Of a stretch of 64,000 nt of DNA, positions 10,007 to 42,701 are shown piece by piece. The DNA comes from Gammaproteobacteria bacterium (GTDB lineage: Bacteria; Pseudomonadota; Gammaproteobacteria; Steroidobacterales; Foliamicaceae). The notes under the pieces are model-generated. The model was not told where the DNA came from and searched no databases. It saw only the letters and a list, made by a program, of their open reading frames with translations. Position 1 is the first letter of the stretch. Every line of letters starts with the position of its first letter. The position numbers were made by a program, and so were the translations under genes. The stretch lies in NCBI GenBank assembly GCA_963665145.1, contig OY762064.1, positions 1,410,403 to 1,474,402 on the forward strand. The letters run 5' to 3'.

Positions 10007-10513
10007 ATGAACTCAGCACCCCCAATCCGGAACATCGTGAAGCGCACCACGCTGATCGTGAGAGACATGGAAAAGAGCCGCCGCTGGTACGAGCACGTGC
10101 TGGGAATGAAGACCTGGATCGACATGCCCTACACCCTTTCCGGAAAGGGCATCGCCGCGGGCAAGAAGGGCGATGTCACGCACCTGGTCATCATGCAGTG
10201 CGAGGACCCGAGGATCGGCATGATCGGCCTGCTGCAGTGGGTGGACCCGCCGCTGCCGGCGCCGGAGATTCCGACTTCCGTGGGTTACGGCACGCCGGTC
10301 TTCGTAGTGGACACCGAAGATGCCGCGGAAGTAGCCCGGCGGGCCGGGGAGTTGGGCACCCTTGTGCATACGCCGGAACGGACTTTTCAGGTGCGAGGGT
10401 CCAAGGGTGAGCTGCGCCACCTGCTGGGTTGCGCCATCTTTGATCCGGACGGGTATTTCTACGAGTGCAACCAGCTGCTGAAGGTCGACGAACCGGAACA
10501 GAAAGCAGGCTAG
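10007..10513 (+). CDS. VOC (glyoxalase/bleomycin-resistance/dioxygenase) family protein
   Basis: 168-aa ORF with VOC-like beta-alpha-beta-beta-beta repeats (TTLIVRDMEKSRRWYEHVLGMK ... IFDPDGYFYE). Confidence 0.7.
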   Translation: MNSAPPIRNIVKRTTLIVRDMEKSRRWYEHVLGMKTWIDMPYTLSGKGIAAGKKGDVTHLVIMQCEDPRIGMIGLLQWVDPPLPAPEIPTSVGYGTPVFVVDTEDAAEVARRAGELGTLVHTPERTFQVRGSKGELRHLLGCAIFDPDGYFYECNQLLKVDEPEQKAG

Positions 10514-10544: not shown

Positions 10545-11330
10545 ATGATCGAATATCCCGGATTCGATCCCGTGGCCCTGCGCATCGGGCCGCTGGCCAT
10601 ACGCTGGTACGGCCTGACGTACCTGCTGGGTTTCGTAGCCGCCTGGTGGCTGGCCAACCGGCGCAGCCGCAAACCCGGCAGCGCCTTCACGCCGGTCATG
10701 GTCCAGGACCTGCTTTTCTACTGTTTCCTCGGCGTCATTCTCGGCGGGCGGCTGGGCTACCTGCTGTTCTACGGCTGGGAGCAGATCATTCAGGATCCGC
10801 TGTACGTCTTCCGTATCTGGGAAGGCGGAATGTCGTTTCACGGCGGCCTGCTCGGCGTCTGCGCCGCAGTGCTGCTGTTCGCCCGCAAGCATTCCAGCAC
10901 CTTTGTCAATGTGGCCGATTTCGTGGTCCCGCTGGTCCCCATCGGGCTGGGCGCGGGGCGCATCGGCAATTTCATCAACGGCGAACTCTGGGGCAAGCCC
11001 AGCACTGCGCCCTGGGCCTTCGTGGTGGACGGCGTGGGCCGGCACCCCACCCAGTTGTACGAGGCTTTCCTGGAAGGCCTGGTGCTGTTCACCGCGCTTT
11101 GGTGGTACACGGCGGAGAGCGCCTCGGGGCAACGCGACAAGGGGCGAGCGACCGGACTGTTCCTGGCCGGGTATGGCGTTTCCCGGTTCCTGGTGGAATT
11201 CTGGCGCCTGCCGGATGAACACCTGGGCTACCTGGCCTTCGGCTGGCTGACCATGGGGCAGCTCCTTACGCTGCCGATGATCGGTTTCGGCGTTTGGCTC
11301 CTTTCACGGCGCTCGCCCGCGACGGCCTAG
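10545..11330 (+). CDS. lgt: Prolipoprotein diacylglyceryl transferase
   Basis: 261-aa ORF: PVALRIGPLAIRWYGLTYLLGF..., GGRLGY, GRIGNFINGELWG and HPTQLYEA are typical Lgt motifs. It lies upstream of thyA, as in many gammaproteobacteria. Confidence 0.93.
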   Translation: MIEYPGFDPVALRIGPLAIRWYGLTYLLGFVAAWWLANRRSRKPGSAFTPVMVQDLLFYCFLGVILGGRLGYLLFYGWEQIIQDPLYVFRIWEGGMSFHGGLLGVCAAVLLFARKHSSTFVNVADFVVPLVPIGLGAGRIGNFINGELWGKPSTAPWAFVVDGVGRHPTQLYEAFLEGLVLFTALWWYTAESASGQRDKGRATGLFLAGYGVSRFLVEFWRLPDEHLGYLAFGWLTMGQLLTLPMIGFGVWLLSRRSPATA

Positions 11331-11333
11331 TGC

Positions 11334-12128
11334 ATGCGCCAGTACCTCGAGCTTCTTCAGGACATCCTGGAAAACGGAACCGAGCGTCACGACCGTACGG
11401 GAACCGGGACCCGGGCGGTGTTCGGGCGGCAGCTGCGCTTCGACCTGGCGGACGGCTTTCCGATGCTGACCACCAAGAAGCTGCCGCTGCGGATCATCGC
11501 GGTGGAATTGCTGTGGTTTCTGCGCGGCGGGACCAACGTGAAATGGCTTCAGGAGCGGCGCGTGAATATCTGGAACGAGTGGGCCGATGAAAACGGCAAT
11601 CTCGGCCCGGTGTACGGCGCGCAATGGCGGCGCTGGCCCGACGGCAAGGGCGGCGCCATCGACCAGGTAGAGGCCGCGCTGAACACCATCCGCGAAGATC
11701 CCGATTCGCGGCGCATCATCATCAACGCCTGGAACGTCGCCGAGATCCCGCGGATGAAACTACCGCCCTGCCACATGATGCTGCAGTTGCACGTCAGCGG
11801 CGGCAGGCTGTCGGGGCAGTTGTATCAACGCAGTGCCGATTTTTTTCTCGGCGCTCCCTTCAACATCGCCTCGTATTCCCTGCTGATCAGCATGATGGCC
11901 GAGCAGACCGGCCTGCAACCCGGAGAGTTCGTCTGGACAGGCGGCGACTGCCACTTGTACGGCAATCACCACAAGCAGGCCCTCGAGCAGCTCAAACGCC
12001 GGCCGCGCCCGCTGCCGAAACTGGAAATCCGCGGCGGGCGGCCGTCCATCGACGACTACCGGGAAAACGATTTCATTCTGCACGGTTACGACCCCCATCC
12101 GCATATCGCAGCGCCGATTTCGGTCTGA
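11334..12128 (+). CDS. thyA: Thymidylate synthase
   Basis: 264-aa ORF: [31 protein letters not shown]..., PPCHMMLQ active-site Cys context, C-terminal HIAAPISV. Confidence 0.96.
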
Positions 12129-12154: not shown

Positions 12155-13099
12155 ATGAGCGACACAGCAAACACTTCCAACCATTCGGGTCTCGACCGGC
12201 GCGCCATGTTGAAAGGCCTGGGCGCGGGAGCGCTGGGAGCGACGGCGCTCGCGGGCTGCGCCGCCGAACAGCGCCGTGTCCCCCTGGACCTGAACGACCC
12301 CGTATCGCGCCTGCGGGCACGGGTAAAGACCTTCGGTTCGCTGGGCGAGGAAACGGTGCATCGAGTGTCGCGCGGCCATGTGTGGGCCTACTTCAACGAG
12401 GGCAACCTGGACCCGCTTTTCAGCATGATCAACTACAACGTCACCCGCTGGCGGCAGGTGGACGAACACAATTACGAGGCCACCATGAACGAAGTGGCCC
12501 TTTTCACCCGGTTCGACACCGATGAAGTAATAACCCACTGGGACAACCCCTATACCGGCGAGACGGTGGAGATTCAGCAGTACATCGTTGGGCCCATCTA
12601 TATCCAGAATGGCCTTGAAGGCACGGTGACCGACGAGAATGCGACCATGGTTCCAAAAAACATGGAATGGTGGACGGTCGGAGGAAAGCTCTTCATCCCG
12701 ACTCGATCCACATTCGCCTTTCCCAATCCCCTGCAGCCTGAAGTGTGGCCCAAGGCATCGGTGGGGCCGACCTTTCACTGGGACTCCTTCATGTTCTTCG
12801 CCGCCGATATCTCCGACCTGGAGAACCCGGACCTCACCATGGCGCCGGCGATCAGCCATTACCAGGAAACGCTGAACTGGAACCCGTGGATGCTGATGGG
12901 CCAGCGACCCGGCCGCCAGCTCTCGCGCGGCTACGGCTGCAAGCTGCGAAGTCTCGACGAAATGCCCGCCAACCTGCGCGCCCGCCTGGATGAATACTCG
13001 CCGGAGATTTTCGATTTGGAGAACTGGACACAAGTGAAGAACGACATGGTGGAGTTCATGAAGAACCGAACGCCTGCGACCCCGGAAACCGCAGAATGA
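12155..13099 (+). CDS. Tat-signal lipoprotein, DUF1838-like; function unknown
   Basis: ORF 11624..13099 trimmed to ATG 12155, with AGGAGA 6 nt upstream. The upstream part of the ORF overlaps thyA out of frame. Twin-arginine signal plus lipobox: DRRAMLKGLGAGALGATALAGC. The body (LDLNDPVSRLRARVKTFGSL...WDNPYTGETVEI) matches my recollection of DUF1838. ATGA overlap with apaG. Confidence 0.6.
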   Translation: MSDTANTSNHSGLDRRAMLKGLGAGALGATALAGCAAEQRRVPLDLNDPVSRLRARVKTFGSLGEETVHRVSRGHVWAYFNEGNLDPLFSMINYNVTRWRQVDEHNYEATMNEVALFTRFDTDEVITHWDNPYTGETVEIQQYIVGPIYIQNGLEGTVTDENATMVPKNMEWWTVGGKLFIPTRSTFAFPNPLQPEVWPKASVGPTFHWDSFMFFAADISDLENPDLTMAPAISHYQETLNWNPWMLMGQRPGRQLSRGYGCKLRSLDEMPANLRARLDEYSPEIFDLENWTQVKNDMVEFMKNRTPATPETAE

Positions 13100-32963: not shown

Positions 32964-33671
32964 ATGGCGCCGTCCGCGATTCGCACCCGGGACCTGACTC
33001 GGACCTACCGGATGGGCGCCGACACCGTGGTGGCGCTGTCGCACGCCAGCCTTGCGGTCCGGGCGAACGAGTATGTCGCCGTTACCGGTCCGTCCGGCTC
33101 CGGCAAGTCCACGCTGATGAACCTGCTGGGCTGCCTGGAGACGCCCACTTCGGGCGACTACTGGTTGAACGGGGTGCACGTCTCGCGAATGAACGGCCGT
33201 GAGCTGGCGCAGGTGCGCAACCGTCAAGTCGGGTTCGTGTTCCAGACCTTCAACCTGCTGGAACGCTGCACGGCCCTGCAGAACGTCGAGGCGCCGCTGA
33301 TCTATGCGCGGATGCGGCGGCGGGAACGGCTGAAGCGGGCCGCCGAAGCGCTGGAACGAGTGGCGCTCTCCAATCGCGTTGCGCATCGGCCCAGTCAACT
33401 CTCCGGTGGGCAGCGGCAACGGGTCGCCATCGCGCGCGCCCTGGTGACAAGGCCCAGCATCCTGCTGGCGGATGAGCCCACGGGCAATCTGGATTCCGCC
33501 ACCGGAGAGGAAGTCCTGAACCTGTTTGACTCGCTGCACGGCGACGGGCACACCCTGATCGTGGTGACCCATGACGCCGGCATCGCGGACCGGGCGCAGC
33601 GCCGGATCGAGATGCTGGATGGGCGGGTAACATTCGACACGGGAAACCGCGCAGGAAACGGCAGCCAGTGA
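32964..33671 (+). CDS. ABC transporter ATP-binding protein (MacB/LolD-like ATPase)
   Basis: 235-aa ORF: [33 protein letters not shown]. Confidence 0.9.
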
Positions 33672-35128
33672 CATCATGCATTCCGAAACCGCTCGCCGGG
33701 GCCATGTCAGGCCTTGCGCTGTTCGTGTGCGGCTGCGCCGAAGAGCCGGCGCCCGAGCCGCAGGCCTATGACCAGGCGCCCGTGGAATTGCGCGACATCC
33801 GCGTATTCGTGGAGGCTGCAGGGGCCGTGGAGCCGTTGCGCACCGTGGAGCTCAAGTCCAAGGCCTCCGGCGAAATCCTCACCATCAACGCCGAGAACGG
33901 CGACTGGGTCGAGCGCTCCACCCTGCTGGTGCAGATCGACAAGCGGATCCCCACCAACAACCTGTCGCAGGCCGAAGCCGCCCTGAAAGCCGCCGAGTCG
34001 CGCCGCTCCATCGCCCTGTTGCAGATGGAGCGCGCCGAGAAACTGGTCAGCGACAACACCATCACCGACAGCGAATTCGAGGAAACGGCGCTGGCGCTGT
34101 CGGAAGCCGAGGCGCAGTTGGTACGGGCGCGCGTGGACGTGGAGAACGCCCGCATCGCGCTGGACGACACCGACGTGCTGGCGCCGATCGACGGCACCAT
34201 CATTGAGCGCAACGTGGAACCGGGGCAGGTGATCTCCTCGCCGACCCAGGACGTCGGGGGCGGCACCCTGCTGCTGCGCATGGCCGATCTGCGCCGGGTG
34301 CTGGTGCGCACGCGGGTCGACGAGACCGACATCGGCAAGATCAGCGCCGGCATGCAGGCCCAGGTCGGCGTGACGGCGTATCCCAATCGGGAGTTTTCCG
34401 GCCTGGTGGAGAAGATCGAGCCGCTGGCCGTGGTGGAGCAGAACGTCACCATGTTTTCGGTGCTGATACTGCTGGACAACCCCGAGTCACTGCTGCTTCC
34501 CGGCATGAACGCCGAAGTGGAAATCAAGATTGCCGAGGAACTGCAGGCCCCGGCCGTGCCGATGGCCGCCTTGCGCACGCTGGACGATATTGCGGCCACG
34601 GCCGACATGTTGAACTGGCCGTACAGCAACCTTCATGACGCGGTGATGAAGGAAAAGGGCGAGTCCGGAAGCGAGGAACAGGCCGAATCGCCCACCGCGC
34701 AGCGCCCCGATTTCGGCGCCATGGCCCGGCAGCAGAATCGCGGCGGCGAACGGCCGCAACTGACCGCCGAGCAGCGCGAGACGATGCGGCGCGCCATGCG
34801 GGAAGCGATGCGCAACCAGCCGCGGGGCGTGGGACGCCCCTGGTCCGGCGGCGCCAGGCCCGGCGGTCCACAGCGCGGGCGGCCCTCAGACGGCCGGCAG
34901 GACTACGACTTCAGCGCAGAGTACTGGGTCCTGGTGATGCGCGATTACGGGCCGGAGCCTGTTTGGGTGCACACGGGCTTAAGCGATTTTGAATTCTCCG
35001 TCGTGCGGACGGGGTTGAAGGAGCGTGAAAAGGTCCTGTTGCTGCCGAGCACCGGGCTTTACGAATCGCAATCGAACCTGCGCAACTGGATGCGCCGCCG
35101 CTCCGGAGGGCTTCCGGGCATCGGCTAG
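33668..35128 (+). CDS. Efflux periplasmic adaptor lipoprotein (HlyD/MacA family) with Arg/Gly-rich insertion
   Basis: 486-aa ORF with a lipobox (LALFVCGC), biotinyl-lipoyl and coiled-coil segments, and an [16 protein letters not shown] hairpin. A ~90-aa low-complexity segment ([56 protein letters not shown]) precedes the last beta-domain. 4-nt overlap with the ATPase gene. Confidence 0.85.
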
Positions 35129-35147: not shown

Positions 35148-36653
35148 CTACAGGTAGTCGAGCATCTCGATCGCGGCCCGTTCGCCGGATTCCATGGCGC
35201 CCTCCATGCCGCGATTCAACTGCGCGGTGTGCTCGCCCGCAAAATGTATGCGGCCGTGCGGCTGGGCGACGTTCTCGGCAAAGCGGGTGATCTGCCCGGG
35301 CTTCCAATAGGCGTAGGCGCCGCCGGCAAAGGGATTGTTGGACCATTTCCACAAGTGCACCGGCCTTATGGCGCCATTAAGCGACGGGCGCAGGCGCAAT
35401 AATTCCGCCGTGACCCGGGCGATGGCGGCTTCGTCTTCCATGTGGGCGAGTCTTAGTGCGGAATGGCCGTTGATGTAGGCCAGGCAACTGGTCACCGCCT
35501 CGGGATTGCCGGGATCGTTCTTCAGCGCCATGAACCGGCCGGGCAAGGCATCGGTCCACATGCTCGGCGCCATCCCGTCGTCCTCGTGGTAGGGCCGCTC
35601 TACCGCATAGTGAACCTGCAGACAGGGTGTATAGCCCAGGTTGTCGATCGCGTCCTGCTGCGCCGGCGGAGGCGCCGGGTCCAATGCCATTCTCCGAAGC
35701 GCCGCGAACGGCATTGCAATGACCGCACGGCGGGCCCTGAGCCTGCGGCCGCCCTCAAGCCGGACCTGCACCAGGTCATTCTCGCTTGCAATCGCCGCAA
35801 CCGGACTGCTCAACAACAGATCTCCCGCCAGACCGTTGGCCATTGCCTCGGGAATGCGCTGATTACCGCCTTTCGCGGCCCCGCCGCCGTCCGGCCAGTT
35901 CATCTGATAGAACACGTTGCTGATGACATGAAACATCATCAGTGCGGAGAGGTCGTGATGATCGGTGCCGTAGCCCGAATTGAGGCCGGCGCCGAGTTCA
36001 ACCGCCGCTTTCGCCAGGCCCGCCTCGGTGAGCACCTCGCCGATCGGCCGGTCCCACGAGGCAAACTCGGGCCGCCGCCAGGCGCCCAGGTCCGATTTCG
36101 GGAACGGGTTGAGTTCCGTGTAGACCTGGTAGGGAGGCCGCGACGGCGGCATCTGCCGGGCCCACTCCTGCCGGTACGGATTCAGCGCATGACCCGGCCA
36201 ATCCTCCTCGCTGATCAACTGGTCCCGGATGCAGAACAGCATCTCACCCTCGCGGGGCTCGGTGCGCGGGCGCATCGGCCCGATCTCGACTCCGTACTGT
36301 CTGGCAGCGCTCAGCAGTCGCGCATAACCTCCTCCGATACCGTTTGCGCCCAGTTCCGGATACCCGGGAACGACTTCGTCCGCAACCGTATGGACACGGC
36401 CGCCTACCCTGGAGGTCGCCTCCACCACCATCACGCGTACGCCCAGCTCTTCCAGCACAAGCGCCGCGTTCAGCCCGGCAAGGCCGGCGCCGATAATAAT
36501 CACCTCCGCATCCAGGCCGCCCCCGGCCTGAGCACCCTGCAACGCGCGCGGCAGCAACCAGGCGCCGGCCAGTGCGGTGCCACCAGCGAGAAACCGCCGG
36601 CGCGCAGTGCGCCCGACGATCTCCCGCGCTGCTTTATTCGGCTTCCTGATCAT
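35148..36653 (-). CDS. Flavin-containing amine oxidase family protein with twin-arginine signal
   Basis: ORF 35148..36692 (GTG); ATG 36653 gives 501 aa. Tat motif RRRFLAGGTALAGAWLL, FAD Rossmann VIIIGAGLAGLNAALVLEELG...GGRV, C-terminal HFAGEHT...MEGAMESGERAA. Confidence 0.85.
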   Translation of the reverse strand: MIRKPNKAAREIVGRTARRRFLAGGTALAGAWLLPRALQGAQAGGGLDAEVIIIGAGLAGLNAALVLEELGVRVMVVEATSRVGGRVHTVADEVVPGYPELGANGIGGGYARLLSAARQYGVEIGPMRPRTEPREGEMLFCIRDQLISEEDWPGHALNPYRQEWARQMPPSRPPYQVYTELNPFPKSDLGAWRRPEFASWDRPIGEVLTEAGLAKAAVELGAGLNSGYGTDHHDLSALMMFHVISNVFYQMNWPDGGGAAKGGNQRIPEAMANGLAGDLLLSSPVAAIASENDLVQVRLEGGRRLRARRAVIAMPFAALRRMALDPAPPPAQQDAIDNLGYTPCLQVHYAVERPYHEDDGMAPSMWTDALPGRFMALKNDPGNPEAVTSCLAYINGHSALRLAHMEDEAAIARVTAELLRLRPSLNGAIRPVHLWKWSNNPFAGGAYAYWKPGQITRFAENVAQPHGRIHFAGEHTAQLNRGMEGAMESGERAAIEMLDYL

Positions 36654-36761
36654 CGAATGACAGTTCCTCCACAAGGAAATCGACTCTATCACGGGGGCCG
36701 ATGCGCCAGGTCGCGGCTTTCAGGTATATTCCTTCAACCACTGCCGCAGGAAGGGAAGCAA

Positions 36762-38267
36762 GTGTTCAATCGCACAAATCCGGCGCAACACCGGGGGCCA
36801 TCCATCAAGACCGGGCGCTACTCGCGCAGGCGCTTCATCGGTTCCGGCGCATGCGCACTGGCGGTGGCCGGGCTGCCGGGCGTGTCCCGCGCCGTCACGA
36901 ACTACAAGGGACTCGACACCATTGTTGTGGGCGCCGGTCTGTCCGGCCTGAACGCCGCCTGCATCCTCCAGGAGCAGGGGCTCAACGTCCTGACACTGGA
37001 AGGCCGCAACCGGATCGGCGGGCGCGTCTACACGCTGATGGATGTGCCCGGCAGACCGGAAGCCGGTGGCGAATGGATGGGCGCCAACTACGCCCGCATG
37101 ATCGACACGGCCAACAGACTGGGCCTGGAAATGCTGGGGCCCGACGACGTCAATGACATCAGGGAATGGTGCTACCGCATCCGGGGCGAGTACATCCTCG
37201 CCTCGGACTGGGAAAGCCATCCGCTCAACCCCACGGTGGGCGACGACCGGAGGATCTTGCCCCACCGCATGCTGTTCGAGCTGTCGCACAAGAACAACCC
37301 GCTTTCCGGCCAGCCCCTGGATGCCTGGATCACCCCGGAATTCGCGCGCTTCGACATTCCCCAGACGCACTATCTGAAGGAATACCTCGGATTCAACGAG
37401 GAAACCATTCGCCTAATGAACGTTGTGATCCACACGGACCACATGGACAACACCTCCGCGCTGCATGAAATACGCCGCTATGCGGTAGGTGAGTTCAATG
37501 CCTCGCGAGCCCTGGCCAACGCCGGCCAGCCCGCCTGGGTGCAGATCAAGGGCGGCAACTCACGCCTGCCCGAAGCCATGGCCGCTTCCCTGGCGAACCC
37601 GGTGGAACTGAACAAGACCGTCTATGCCTTCGAGGACAAGGGCAAGGAAGTCACCGTGCATTGCATGGACGGCACGAGCTATACGGCCCGCCAGGTCATC
37701 TGCTCGACTCCCTATCCGGTCCTGCGCAAGGTGAAATTCTCGCCACGCCTGCCGGAACGGATGGAGAGGGCGATCGATGAAATCGACTACGGCACCTCCA
37801 TCCAGGTGCATTTCCTGCTCAGGAAGCACTTCTGGGAGCAGGACGAAATGCCGGCCAGCATGTGGACCGACGAACCGTTCGAGCGCTTCGCCGTCCATCG
37901 CCGGGGACCGAACGGCGAGCCTACCTCCGCAGTAGCCTTCATCAATGGCAACGAAGCCTACAAGTACGATTTCATGACCGACGAGCAGGTTACGCAATTC
38001 ACCATGCAGGCACTGGAACGCGCAAGGCCGTCTCTGAAAGGCGCACTTCAGCCGATCGGAATTCAGTCCTGCCATCGTGAGGTCCACGGCGGCGGCGACT
38101 GGGTGTTCTGGCGTCCCGGACAGGTCTCGGCGTTTGCCGCGCATATGCGCGAAGCCCACGGCAATGTTCATTTCGCCGGAGAGCACACTGCGCTGATGGA
38201 GCGCGGCATGGAAGGGGCGTTCGAGTCGGGCGAACGCGCCGCGGTGGATGTTCTGCTTCGCTCTTAA
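36762..38267 (+). CDS. Flavin-containing amine oxidase family protein with twin-arginine signal (paralog, divergent)
   Basis: 3' part of ORF 35463..38267. Start at GTG 36762 with AAGGGA 5 nt upstream, giving 501 aa. Tat motif SRRRFIGSGACALAVAGL, TIVVGAGLSGLNAACILQEQG...GGRV, HFAGEHT...MEGAFESGERAA. Confidence 0.85.
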   Translation: MFNRTNPAQHRGPSIKTGRYSRRRFIGSGACALAVAGLPGVSRAVTNYKGLDTIVVGAGLSGLNAACILQEQGLNVLTLEGRNRIGGRVYTLMDVPGRPEAGGEWMGANYARMIDTANRLGLEMLGPDDVNDIREWCYRIRGEYILASDWESHPLNPTVGDDRRILPHRMLFELSHKNNPLSGQPLDAWITPEFARFDIPQTHYLKEYLGFNEETIRLMNVVIHTDHMDNTSALHEIRRYAVGEFNASRALANAGQPAWVQIKGGNSRLPEAMAASLANPVELNKTVYAFEDKGKEVTVHCMDGTSYTARQVICSTPYPVLRKVKFSPRLPERMERAIDEIDYGTSIQVHFLLRKHFWEQDEMPASMWTDEPFERFAVHRRGPNGEPTSAVAFINGNEAYKYDFMTDEQVTQFTMQALERARPSLKGALQPIGIQSCHREVHGGGDWVFWRPGQVSAFAAHMREAHGNVHFAGEHTALMERGMEGAFESGERAAVDVLLRS

Positions 38268-38296
38268 GCCCCGGCGCCTCCATCCGGAGTCAATGC

Positions 38297-39313
38297 ATGC
38301 TGAAGAACTGTCTTGCCGTCCTGCTCCTGATCCCGGCCGCAGCGCAGGCCGCTCCGGAAGCCGACCCGTTCGCACGCGACCTGCTTGTATTGACCGGCTG
38401 GTTCGAAGGTGAGTTCGACAACGAGGAACAGCGCTGGTTCCAGGCGAACCCGCGTTCCAATACGCCCGAGGATGAGCGGCATGTGCGCGTGCACACCACC
38501 CACAAACGGATACAAGCGCCGGAATTCGGCGAGCATGTCTTTTACGTTGAGGAGTACACGGAGGACAACCCCGACCAGGTCTACCGGCAGCGCCTGGTCA
38601 TCTTCTCGTCCGAACCGGAAGATGGCGGGATACGCATGCAGCAGGGCTTCTTCCATAGCCCGGAACGTTTTCTCGGCGCCCGGCACAAGCCGGGATTGTT
38701 CGATGCGCTCGGTCCTTCGGACGTGTTCTTCCTGGACCAGTGCGACGTCTACTGGACGCGGGTTGCGGGCCAGTTCCAGGGCGGCATGCGACCGAAGGCC
38801 TGCGTATTCGGCGAAGGCGCCTTGCGGCGCTACGCGGTGCACGATCTTTATCTCTCGGCCGACAAGTACTGGCGCGTGGACTCCACCTTCCTGGTGGCTG
38901 ACGACACGCTACACATCGGGATGCCCGAGGACCGACCCTTTGAGATGCGGCGCGTGAAGGCGTTCACCTGCAATGTCACATTCGATCCGCGGGGGCCGTC
39001 TCCGCAGGAGAATACGGGGCTGCGTCTGCACAGCCAGGGTGGCTCATTCGATGTAACAAGGGAGCGCGACGGACAGGTATTCACCGTGCTGATGCGCGAC
39101 AAGGAATATCCCTATTACTCCACGCGCCCGGACTTTATCTACTTTTCGATACGCAGAAAGGGAGAACAGGCGTCGGTCGTGTTCACCGTCAACGATCCGG
39201 ACTCGAGATCGCTGGGAGTAAACAACGGGGAACTGCTGGCGTCGTGCTACCGGGACGGTTACGAATTTCGGGAATCCCTGGAGCGGGTGACACGATCCGC
39301 CGGAGGGCCCTGA
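38297..39313 (+). CDS. Secreted CpcT/CpeT (DUF1001, bilin-lyase family) domain protein with extra C-terminal domain
   Basis: 338-aa ORF with a signal peptide (MLKNCLAVLLLIPAAAQA). By-eye alignment to cyanobacterial CpcT: LTGWFEGEFDNEEQ ~ LARWMAADFSNQAQ, HVFYVEEY...VYRQRLVIF ~ FFVEQAY...PYRLRVLKL, LDQCDVYW...FQGG...ACVF ~ LPGCNMIVEW...FKGT...GCIV. GGAG lies 7 nt upstream of the ATG. Confidence 0.75.
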   Translation: MLKNCLAVLLLIPAAAQAAPEADPFARDLLVLTGWFEGEFDNEEQRWFQANPRSNTPEDERHVRVHTTHKRIQAPEFGEHVFYVEEYTEDNPDQVYRQRLVIFSSEPEDGGIRMQQGFFHSPERFLGARHKPGLFDALGPSDVFFLDQCDVYWTRVAGQFQGGMRPKACVFGEGALRRYAVHDLYLSADKYWRVDSTFLVADDTLHIGMPEDRPFEMRRVKAFTCNVTFDPRGPSPQENTGLRLHSQGGSFDVTRERDGQVFTVLMRDKEYPYYSTRPDFIYFSIRRKGEQASVVFTVNDPDSRSLGVNNGELLASCYRDGYEFRESLERVTRSAGGP

Positions 39314-39357
39314 GCAGGACCCGCGGCGTGTGGGCCCGTGCGGCCCAGCAGGACGGA

Positions 39358-41604: not shown

Positions 41605-42099
41605 CTACTGGACGACGTCCGTGTTCCAGTTCTCGGTCGGCCGCTCTATGACGTTGATCATCATGCCGTCGGGATCACGGCAGGTCATTTCCAATTGCCG
41701 CAGGTCGTGCACCGCCAGCAATTGCGGCTCGCATACGACTTCGCCGCCAAATTTAACGATCCGGTCGCGCACCTGGCGAATGTCGGTGGCGAAAAAAACC
41801 ATGCAGCCTTCGCCCAGGTTGGCGCCCCGGTTCTCCTTGCGGGATGGTGACGGCGCCGGCTTGATCTCGAACAGGCCGACCATGCCGAAGTTGAGCTCGT
41901 CGGCCTTGACGATTTCATAGCGGATCAGGTGGTCGTCCGGTACGCCGACCAGGGCATGACCCACCTTGTGCTCCAGGACGCCGTTGGCGTAGACCTCGCT
42001 GTAGCCGAGGGCCTCCCTGTAGAAACGAACGGAATTTTCCAGGTCGGAAACGAAAATGGCGGTGCGCACAATGCGACTGACCTGTGGACTGTCGTTCAC
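41605..42099 (-). CDS. VOC (glyoxalase-fold) family protein, tandem copy 1
   Basis: ORF 41605..42336 trimmed to GTG 42099 (VNDSPQVSRIVRTAIFVSDLENSVRFYREALGY), with GGGAGG 6 nt upstream. 164 aa. Confidence 0.75.
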   Translation of the reverse strand: MNDSPQVSRIVRTAIFVSDLENSVRFYREALGYSEVYANGVLEHKVGHALVGVPDDHLIRYEIVKADELNFGMVGLFEIKPAPSPSRKENRGANLGEGCMVFFATDIRQVRDRIVKFGGEVVCEPQLLAVHDLRQLEMTCRDPDGMMINVIERPTENWNTDVVQ

Positions 42100-42176: not shown

Positions 42177-42701
42177 TTACGAAGCGATCGCGCGCATGAA
42201 GCTCTCGACCGGGCGCTCGATGAGGTTGATCAGCATCCCGTCGGGATCGCGGCAGGTCATTTCCAGGTTTCCGGGACCGGTCATCTGCACGTTCCCGGGG
42301 AGGGTGCCCCGAACGACGAGTCGCTGAGGCTCGCATACGATTTCCCCGCCCAGGTCCACCAGACGGTCCCGCACCGCGCGAATGTCGGTAGTGAGCATGA
42401 CCAGGCAGCCCTCGCCGACGTTTGCGCTCGCCTTCCGGCGGCTTACCGGCGGCGGCGACGGCTTGACCTCGAACATGCCGATCATCCCGAAATTCGGTCC
42501 CTCGGCCTTCACGATTTCATAGCGAATAGCGGAGTCCACCGGCACGCCGAGCAGAGCATGCGCTACCTCATGAGTCAGGTCCCCCGCGCTGTAAACCTCA
42601 TGGTAGCCGAGGCCCTGCTTGTAGAAACGCGAGGACCGGTCGAGGTCGGAAACAAAAAGTGCGGTGCGCACCAGGCGGCTGACTTGCGGTGTGTCGTTCA
42701 C
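42177..42701 (-). CDS. VOC (glyoxalase-fold) family protein, tandem copy 2
   Basis: 174-aa ORF from GTG 42701 (VNDTPQVSRLVRTALFVSDLDRSSRFYKQGLGY), with GGGAGGG upstream. Colinear with copy 1 except for an extra RGTLPGNVQMTGPGN segment. Confidence 0.75.
   Translation of the reverse strand: MNDTPQVSRLVRTALFVSDLDRSSRFYKQGLGYHEVYSAGDLTHEVAHALLGVPVDSAIRYEIVKAEGPNFGMIGMFEVKPSPPPVSRRKASANVGEGCLVMLTTDIRAVRDRLVDLGGEIVCEPQRLVVRGTLPGNVQMTGPGNLEMTCRDPDGMLINLIERPVESFMRAIAS

Follow-up and report, generated by a model that had tools for sequence, protein, structure and literature searches.

What does a secreted relative of the phycobiliprotein lyase CpcT do beside exported flavoenzymes in a non-photosynthetic bacterium? 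The question is raised by a locus on contig OY762064.1 of a gammaproteobacterium (Steroidobacterales, Foliamicaceae; GenBank assembly GCA_963665145.1), within a 64,000-nucleotide stretch (positions 1,410,403 to 1,474,402; ~64% GC) that is called the window below. Here two genes belonging to the flavin amine oxidoreductase (FAO) family, AO1 and AO2, lie head-to-head and AO2 is followed by a CpcT-like gene, CpcTL. An earlier note on this DNA, made from the sequence alone, had read the three genes as a periplasmic amine or amino-acid oxidation module with a lipocalin-like binding partner. We found that the FAO/CpcT-like pairing is a conserved multi-phylum module of dozens of marine bacteria, and that the genes of its canonical operon run FAO - CpcTL - class I cytochrome c. 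The features of the locus are given below, with lengths in amino acids (aa) or nucleotides (nt); Tat stands for twin-arginine translocation.

35148-36653, minus strand: AO1, ATG start, 501 aa, Tat-exported FAO-family flavoenzyme (TARRRFL, IIGAGLAG; Gln at the flavin-N5 Lys position)
36654-36761, no strand: divergent intergenic region between AO1 and AO2, 108 nt
36762-38267, plus strand: AO2, GTG start, 501 aa, Tat-exported FAO-family flavoenzyme (SRRRFI; Gln348, Gly445)
38297-39313, plus strand: CpcTL, 338 aa, Sec-exported two-domain protein
38375-38908: calyx domain of CpcTL with the CpcT fold, ~residues 27-204
38909-39310: C-terminal beta domain of CpcTL, ~residues 205-338
39314-39357, no strand: gap of 44 nt between the stop codons of CpcTL and priA; site of the class I cytochrome c gene in sister genomes, deleted here

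The FAO/CpcT-like pair and its operon cytochrome c

Loci encoding relatives of CpcTL were sampled at one genome per species (54 loci), and gene adjacency was scored over 53 of them. In 45 of the 53, across three classes, CpcTL is preceded on the same strand by an AO2-type gene (50-91% identity) with a gap of 1-110 nt; two more have such a gene within 5 kb. The carriers comprise Gammaproteobacteria (many sponge-derived metagenome-assembled genomes, Candidatus Foliamicus, Woeseiaceae, Steroidobacteraceae and Arenicella), Alphaproteobacteria (Parasphingorhabdus, Erythrobacter, Kordiimonas, Hirschia maritima and Rhodospirillaceae) and Flavobacteriia (Aquimarina and Spongiivirga). Of the trio that the earlier note had proposed to follow through other genomes, the AO2-CpcTL pairing thus stands, whereas the three genes do not form a conserved unit, AO1 being the neighbour of AO2 in no clade other than the window's own (12 sister loci).

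Outside this clade, AO1-type enzymes (39-56% identity to AO1) adjoin a shorter CpcT-like protein in 11 of 14 loci, ~200 aa in its mature form and often carrying a lipoprotein signal. Two loci, L059 and L060, have CpcT-like genes on both sides of the FAO: beside an IclR regulator gene, the operon runs TonB receptor - divergent two-domain CpcT-like protein - FAO - short CpcT-like protein - two TPR-like proteins. The divergent member (303 aa at 5572-6483 of L059; 320 aa at 5477-6439 of L060), which lies between the TonB receptor and the AO1-type FAO, has no Pfam match and was recognized by hidden Markov models of both the N-terminal and the C-terminal domain of CpcTL. No fewer than three CpcT-like subfamilies accompany Tat-FAOs, and every subfamily goes with an enzyme type of its own. 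Because these are separate, co-diverged pairs, they look like cognate partners rather than generic neighbours, and the sequence comparison argues for CpcTL as the dedicated partner of its FAO. No paper describing a pairing of a CpcT homologue with an amine oxidase was found in the literature, in agreement with the earlier note, which knew of none; searches on DUF1001, on chromophore lyase with monoamine oxidase, and on DUF1838 returned nothing relevant.

The cytochrome came to light when all open reading frames (ORFs) of the loci were clustered. It is a class I cytochrome c of ~150 aa (CxxCH, PF00034, Met ligand region) with a Sec or lipoprotein signal, and its gene lies within 3 kb in 32 of the 54 loci, mostly right behind CpcTL and sometimes immediately ahead of the FAO. 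The gene is still present in seven of the 12 sister loci, where the orthologues are 84-91% identical. Alignment of the window with L003 and L007, in which the gene is present (10917-11426 and 10947-11477, respectively), and with L009 shows a clean deletion in the window and an independent one in L009 (~10930-10970), where the last ~27 nt of the gene are left. Between CpcTL and priA, the sister clade seems to have a rearrangement hot spot.

The flavoenzymes AO1 and AO2 and the two-domain protein CpcTL

Both 501-aa proteins match Pfam Amino_oxidase (PF01593) over the entire model (1-443 of 443; AO1, 195.9 bits, E 2e-57; AO2, 195.7 bits, E 2.3e-57; cut-off 19.8) and share 37% identity across 495 residues (E 4e-96). 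These matches and the ORFs bear out the description of two FAO paralogues facing away from each other across 108 nt. So, too, does each protein have the RRRF twin-arginine motif (TARRRFLAGG in AO1, YSRRRFIGSG in AO2) that had been noticed ahead of the flavin adenine dinucleotide (FAD) Rossmann fold; it is followed by a hydrophobic stretch, an AxA-type site and the GxGxxG FAD motif (IIGAGLAG in AO1, VVGAGLSG in AO2), and the arginine pair is retained in almost all orthologues. The GTG start of AO2 is preceded by a Shine-Dalgarno-like stretch, GGAAGGGAAG, and a 501-aa entry of a public protein collection (P0121) is identical to AO2 (100%) with the same start. A mechanical ORF list gives instead a spurious 934-aa ORF (35463-38267, plus strand), the AO2 frame lacking a stop codon for another 1.3 kb upstream, where it runs antisense to AO1, owing to the high GC content; the true start is the GTG at 36762.

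The best relatives of known structure found by phmmer are monoamine oxidases (MAOs), namely rat MAO-A for AO1 (1o5w, E 6.7e-31; human MAO-B ~1e-30) and human MAO-B for AO2 (2xfo, E 8.4e-35), followed by a Thermoanaerobacterales MAO (8p84), L-amino-acid oxidases, cyclohexylamine oxidase and putrescine oxidase. The AlphaFold model of AO2 (pLDDT 85) has low confidence at residues 1-46, where the signal peptide is expected, and Foldseek aligned it with MAO-B/A (TM-score 0.72; E 2e-31 for MAO-B) at 25% identity and with other oxidases at 20-24%. Fold and FAD-binding architecture are therefore shared with MAO A/B, the 8p84 enzyme, putrescine oxidase, cyclohexylamine oxidase and the snake-venom L-amino-acid oxidases (Foldseek E ~1e-31 to 1e-27, TM-score ~0.72), but AO1 and AO2 differ from this group in their low identity (20-25%), their Tat export and several active-site positions. 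The FAD-linking Cys397 of MAO-B aligns to Gly445 of AO2 and to Ala in AO1, so that the Cys of the 8-alpha-S-cysteinyl FAD of the MAO A/B clade is lacking, and the second tyrosine of the aromatic cage (Tyr398/Tyr435), Tyr435, falls in a gap just before an invariant R-G-M-E-G motif. Lys296 of MAO-B, which lies at the flavin N5, aligns to Gln348 of AO2 in the phmmer alignment; in a MAFFT alignment of 61 family members, every one of the 39 AO2-type sequences has Gln here, and each of the 22 AO1-type sequences has either Gln or His. The lysine is near-universal elsewhere (K296 in MAO-B, K340 in NicA2), as a conserved rather than a defining feature of the superfamily, to which exceptions have been published (PMC12224317).

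An NCBIfam scan gave no equivalog at its cut-off for either protein, and their public homologues bear generic names only. Together with the ~25% identity to the nearest structures, this places AO1 and AO2, as judged from sequence, within the FAO superfamily and outside every characterized clade; the earlier note had held that membership of a well-characterized clade whose function leaves out the third gene would count against its reading, and no such membership was found.

The gene that begins 29 nt after the AO2 stop codon (at 38297) does encode a CpcT-family protein with a signal peptide, as had been claimed. Residues 1-18 of CpcTL form a Sec-type signal that is conserved in homologues (MLKNCLAVLLLIPAAAQA, cleaved before AP; …PAAAQA/AP), and PF06206 (CpeT) covers residues 32-201 (E 4.6e-21). 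A profile of 15 CpcTL homologues matched Nostoc CpcT (4o4o, E 3.4e-7), and in the AlphaFold model (62 sequences, pLDDT 90.9) the N-terminal domain was matched by Foldseek to CpcT (4o4o, E 4e-11, TM-score 0.80 on the target) and also to Arabidopsis CRL (6lix). CpcTL shares with the T-type phycobiliprotein lyases CpcT/CpeT (4o4o/4o4s) and the plant protein CRL (6lix) the PF06206 domain, the calyx beta-barrel and an aligned pair of barrel cysteines. It differs from them in its identity of only 15-18% and in the fusion of an extra C-terminal beta domain. T-type lyases are cytoplasmic proteins of phycobilisome-bearing hosts, whereas CpcTL has a cleavable Sec signal for export to the periplasm, its carriers are heterotrophic, non-photosynthetic Proteobacteria and Bacteroidota, and its genomic partner is a flavoenzyme and not a phycobiliprotein.

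The second domain, which is lineage-specific, absent from the earlier note and of no known fold, is all-beta with a terminal helix (residues ~205-338). It gave no Pfam match even at E 10 and no PDB match by Foldseek. A duplication of the N-terminal domain was considered and rejected (hhalign probability 0.25%). An exhaustive phmmer search of 1.84 billion representative proteins found this domain in only 33 clusters; it stands at the C-terminal end of the full-length representatives (~300-430 aa), the other matches (88-270 aa) being apparently fragments. The CpcTL family is under marked constraint, with a mean column identity of 55% across classes, ~43 invariant residues, many of them polar and including His, Tyr and Cys, and four conserved cysteines. 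Judged on the modelled fold, a lipocalin-like ligand-binding partner of the FAO is a plausible description of CpcTL.

Electron acceptor and role of CpcTL

Whether such enzymes are oxidases or dehydrogenases has been addressed in a recent kinetic study, in which FAOs that combine a Tat signal with a cytochrome c gene in the operon proved to be cytochrome-c-dependent dehydrogenases, as are NicA2 and Pnao, which pass electrons directly to CycN (Akram et al., 2025; PMC12224317). An adjacent cytochrome gene was a stronger predictor than the Tat signal; the N5 lysine (NicA2 K340) was tied to O2 reactivity, and the slowest O2 reactor has lost it (PMC12224317). The text of that paper makes no mention of CpcT, lyases or lipocalins.

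AO1 and AO2 resemble NicA2/Pnao-CycN of Pseudomonas putida S16 and the dehydrogenases of that study (PMC12224317) in belonging to the FAO superfamily and in their Tat signals (RRRF and a hydrophobic region, kept in orthologues). They share the departure at the N5 lysine with its slowest O2 reactor. The Sec-exported class I cytochrome c is encoded in the operon at orthologous loci, although there CpcTL intervenes between it and the FAO, and in the window it is missing. A periplasmic amine oxidation feeding the respiratory chain would be a further likeness. The present lineage differs in being remote from NicA2, which matches AO1 and AO2 weakly (~53 bits, N-terminus only, against 123 bits for MAO-B), and in having a tightly co-conserved CpcT-fold gene between FAO and cytochrome c. 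The operon cytochrome c of the orthologues, the Tat signal and the replacement of the N5 Lys by Gln make dehydrogenases likelier than H2O2-forming oxidases, and from sequence and by analogy this FAO family probably consists of dehydrogenases. The label 'oxidase' in the earlier note is therefore doubtful. Its reading of a periplasmic module, by contrast, is sound because both flavoenzymes have conserved Tat signals and CpcTL a Sec signal. The Erythrobacter genomes of loci L021 and L025 carry AO2- and AO1-type FAOs with CpcT-like partners, and can be compared with the Tat-FAO of Erythrobacter sp. 1414, which has no nearby cytochrome, reacts slowly with O2 and draws on some other periplasmic oxidant (PMC12224317).

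Taken as a whole, the locus is best explained, with moderate confidence, as a cytochrome-c-coupled periplasmic module for amine oxidation in which CpcTL is the dedicated partner. AO1 and AO2 would fold and bind FAD in the cytoplasm before export by Tat, and CpcTL would be exported unfolded by Sec. An amine would cross the outer membrane, often through a co-encoded TonB-dependent receptor, and its C-N bond would be oxidized in the periplasm by the flavoenzyme. The two electrons of the reduced flavin would then pass to cytochrome c and the respiratory chain rather than to O2, as in NicA2/Pnao-CycN. The role we prefer for CpcTL is that of a carrier or catalyst, whose calyx may hold the substrate or the reactive imine or aldehyde product and pass it to or from the enzyme. 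Since the operon cytochrome c has been lost here, AO1 and AO2 would have to rely on a cytochrome whose gene lies elsewhere, on a different periplasmic acceptor or on slow turnover with O2. Gene structures, export signals, folds, co-conservation, the cytochrome c of orthologous operons and the replacement of Lys by Gln are observed in the data, and from them the dehydrogenase physiology, the electron acceptor in this organism, the part played by CpcTL and the class of substrate are inferred.

A periplasmic dehydrogenase with a small dedicated electron carrier, sometimes with an accessory subunit, is found in p-cresol methylhydroxylase (PchF/PchC), flavocytochrome c sulfide dehydrogenase, methylamine dehydrogenase-amicyanin and quinohemoprotein amine dehydrogenase. 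The coupling logic is the same as that proposed here, but the protein families and cofactors are unrelated, and to our knowledge none of these systems includes a CpcT-fold component.

Several points weigh against this explanation, and some of them favour its main rival, that of the earlier note, in which both enzymes are genuine oxidases of the periplasm, with O2 as acceptor and H2O2 as product, and CpcTL binds the amine or amino-acid substrate in the manner of a lipocalin. No homologue of the operon cytochrome c was found at the locus or anywhere in the 64-kb window, roughly half of the sister genomes have lost the gene as well, most of the Tat-FAOs surveyed that had no adjacent cytochrome gene were fast with O2 (PMC12224317), and the nearest relatives of solved structure are all named oxidases. 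The first and third of these points give the rival added weight at this locus. The Lys-to-Gln argument, moreover, draws on an alignment and on one paper's discussion rather than on kinetics; because AO1 and AO2 are remote from NicA2, dehydrogenase behaviour is extrapolated across lineages; NicA2-type systems need no calycin, so that precedent does not explain a role for CpcTL; and no substrate could be named. We nevertheless regard true oxidases as rather unlikely, given that close sister orthologues retain the operon cytochrome c, that the O2-linked lysine is replaced in every family member, and that even a Tat-only enzyme, that of Erythrobacter sp. 1414, is slow with O2 (PMC12224317). CpcTL could also stand in the electron path itself, as an acceptor carrying heme, bilin or quinone in its calyx or as an adaptor docking FAO and cytochrome c, and so substitute where the cytochrome gene has been lost. 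The position of its gene between those of FAO and cytochrome c, its retention where the cytochrome gene is deleted, its invariant His, Tyr and Cys residues, and the binding of tetrapyrrole-derived ligands by CpcT and CRL (title of PDB entry 4o4s) would all fit. This we consider improbable, however, since no cofactor-binding motif is known or was detected in CpcTL, the FAO and cytochrome c genes of L025 are adjacent with CpcTL convergent to them, and transfer from NicA2/Pnao to CycN is direct (PMC12224317).

Two further explanations have less in their favour. CpcTL might have kept a bilin-directed activity, the cluster catabolizing phycobilin chromopeptides or other bilins imported through TonB receptors, with the FAO acting like a protoporphyrinogen oxidase. 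The N-terminal domain has the CpcT fold and the signature positions of the family, PF01593 includes protoporphyrinogen oxidases (weak N-terminal matches), TonB receptors and periplasmic hydrolases are co-encoded, and the marine bacteria that carry the cluster live in company with algae, sponges or cyanobacteria. Yet AO1 and AO2 match MAO, L-amino-acid oxidase and putrescine oxidase over their full length and the protoporphyrinogen and phytoene enzymes only in the FAD-binding N-terminus, and nothing in the data points specifically to bilins, which leaves this a very remote prospect. Hardly credible at all is an adjacency of AO2 and CpcTL devoid of functional meaning, with CpcTL an unrelated periplasmic protein. 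Six of the 53 loci, one of them at a contig edge, have no FAO within 10 kb of CpcTL, which also counts against the dedicated partnership, and in Algimonas the two genes are 6 kb apart. The idea is already contradicted by the same-strand adjacency with short gaps in 45 loci of three classes, and by the independent pairing of a second and a third CpcT-like subfamily with FAOs.

The wider, probably catabolic neighbourhood and its meaning

In other genomes the FAO/CpcT-like module has recurrent neighbours: a TonB-dependent receptor, an IclR regulator, alpha/beta hydrolases, DUF1330 and VOC/glyoxalase proteins, an MFS transporter, Tat-signal DUF1838 proteins, a PvdO-like FGE-sulfatase protein, amidohydrolases, a CN-hydrolase and a CurA-like reductase. 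Together they resemble a catabolic island, unusual in how much of it is periplasmic, for a compound that needs active uptake across the outer membrane. The FGE-sulfatase-domain protein (cluster c5), which has a signal peptide, often accompanies FAO/CpcT-like genes (L018, L021, L029, L035, L043-L047, L057, L058) and is similar to PvdO, an enzyme of pyoverdine maturation (NCBIfam E 3.6e-57, short of the cut-off), which hints at further periplasmic oxidative chemistry in the island.

In the window, the module is flanked by housekeeping genes, with mreB, gatA, gatB, an ABC ATPase and a membrane-fusion protein on one side and priA and VOC/glyoxalase genes on the other. Components of that island appear to be scattered among such genes in this reduced genome. 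A VOC/glyoxalase protein of 168 aa (10007-10513, plus strand), whose gene stands between lgt and one for a DUF255 thioredoxin-domain protein, shares 50% identity with the VOC protein beside the AO2 orthologue of Algimonas porphyrae and 59% with one in L018. A DUF1838 Tat-lipoprotein (DRRAML motif, LAGC lipobox) is encoded just after thyA (12155-13099, plus strand), and Tat-signal DUF1838 proteins (cluster c8) are frequent beside FAO/CpcT-like clusters elsewhere (L032, L055, L057, L058).

Beyond priA lie tandem VOC/glyoxalase paralogues on the minus strand (41605-42099 and 42177-42701; 60% mutual identity, no signal peptides), the first of which is over-extended to 243 aa in the ORF list; at only ~27% identity to the VOC genes of FAO clusters elsewhere, they were left aside as module members. 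Between gatB and AO1 (32964-35128, plus strand) are the MacB/LolD-like ABC ATPase (235 aa) and the 486-aa membrane-fusion protein, with no adjoining permease gene. These two genes and priA were rejected as parts of the module, their synteny being confined to the sister clade and absent from the other loci. The 108-nt spacer between AO1 and AO2 showed no sigma-70-like promoter match and no inverted repeat, scans for promoters, terminators and inverted repeats giving nothing above chance, and Rfam scans of the window and seven related loci for a ligand-naming riboswitch gave no match.

FAOs were long held to be oxidases, and the cytochrome-c-dependent dehydrogenases among them have been recognized only recently and only near NicA2. 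The Tat-FAO/cytochrome c type of system is thus already known (PMC12224317), and what is new here is its obligate-looking CpcT-fold partner, on which no literature was found, and a lineage closer to MAO than to NicA2. The locus points to a separate MAO-like lineage with the signature of Tat signal and cytochrome c, and with a tightly co-evolving CpcT-fold protein in addition. A bolder generalization, which we put forward tentatively as a possibility, is that a widespread and so far undescribed lineage of flavin amine dehydrogenases in the periplasm has CpcT-fold proteins as obligate third components (FAO - calycin - cytochrome c). Each calycin would form a specific complex with its cognate FAO, presenting a TonB-imported amine or processing the imine product, or would act as electron acceptor or adaptor where the cytochrome gene is missing. 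If this is true, it would provide the first function for non-photosynthetic CpcT homologues and would explain Tat-FAOs that are slow with O2 yet have no adjacent cytochrome c. As the module has three genes and its carriers include cultivable bacteria (Hirschia maritima, Algimonas porphyrae, Spongiivirga), the function of a periplasmic CpcT homologue is directly testable. Some sister genomes have lost the cytochrome gene, which provides a natural comparison on the evolution of oxidant choice, and the conserved island suggests an unrecognized route by which marine and sponge-associated bacteria may use a nitrogenous compound.

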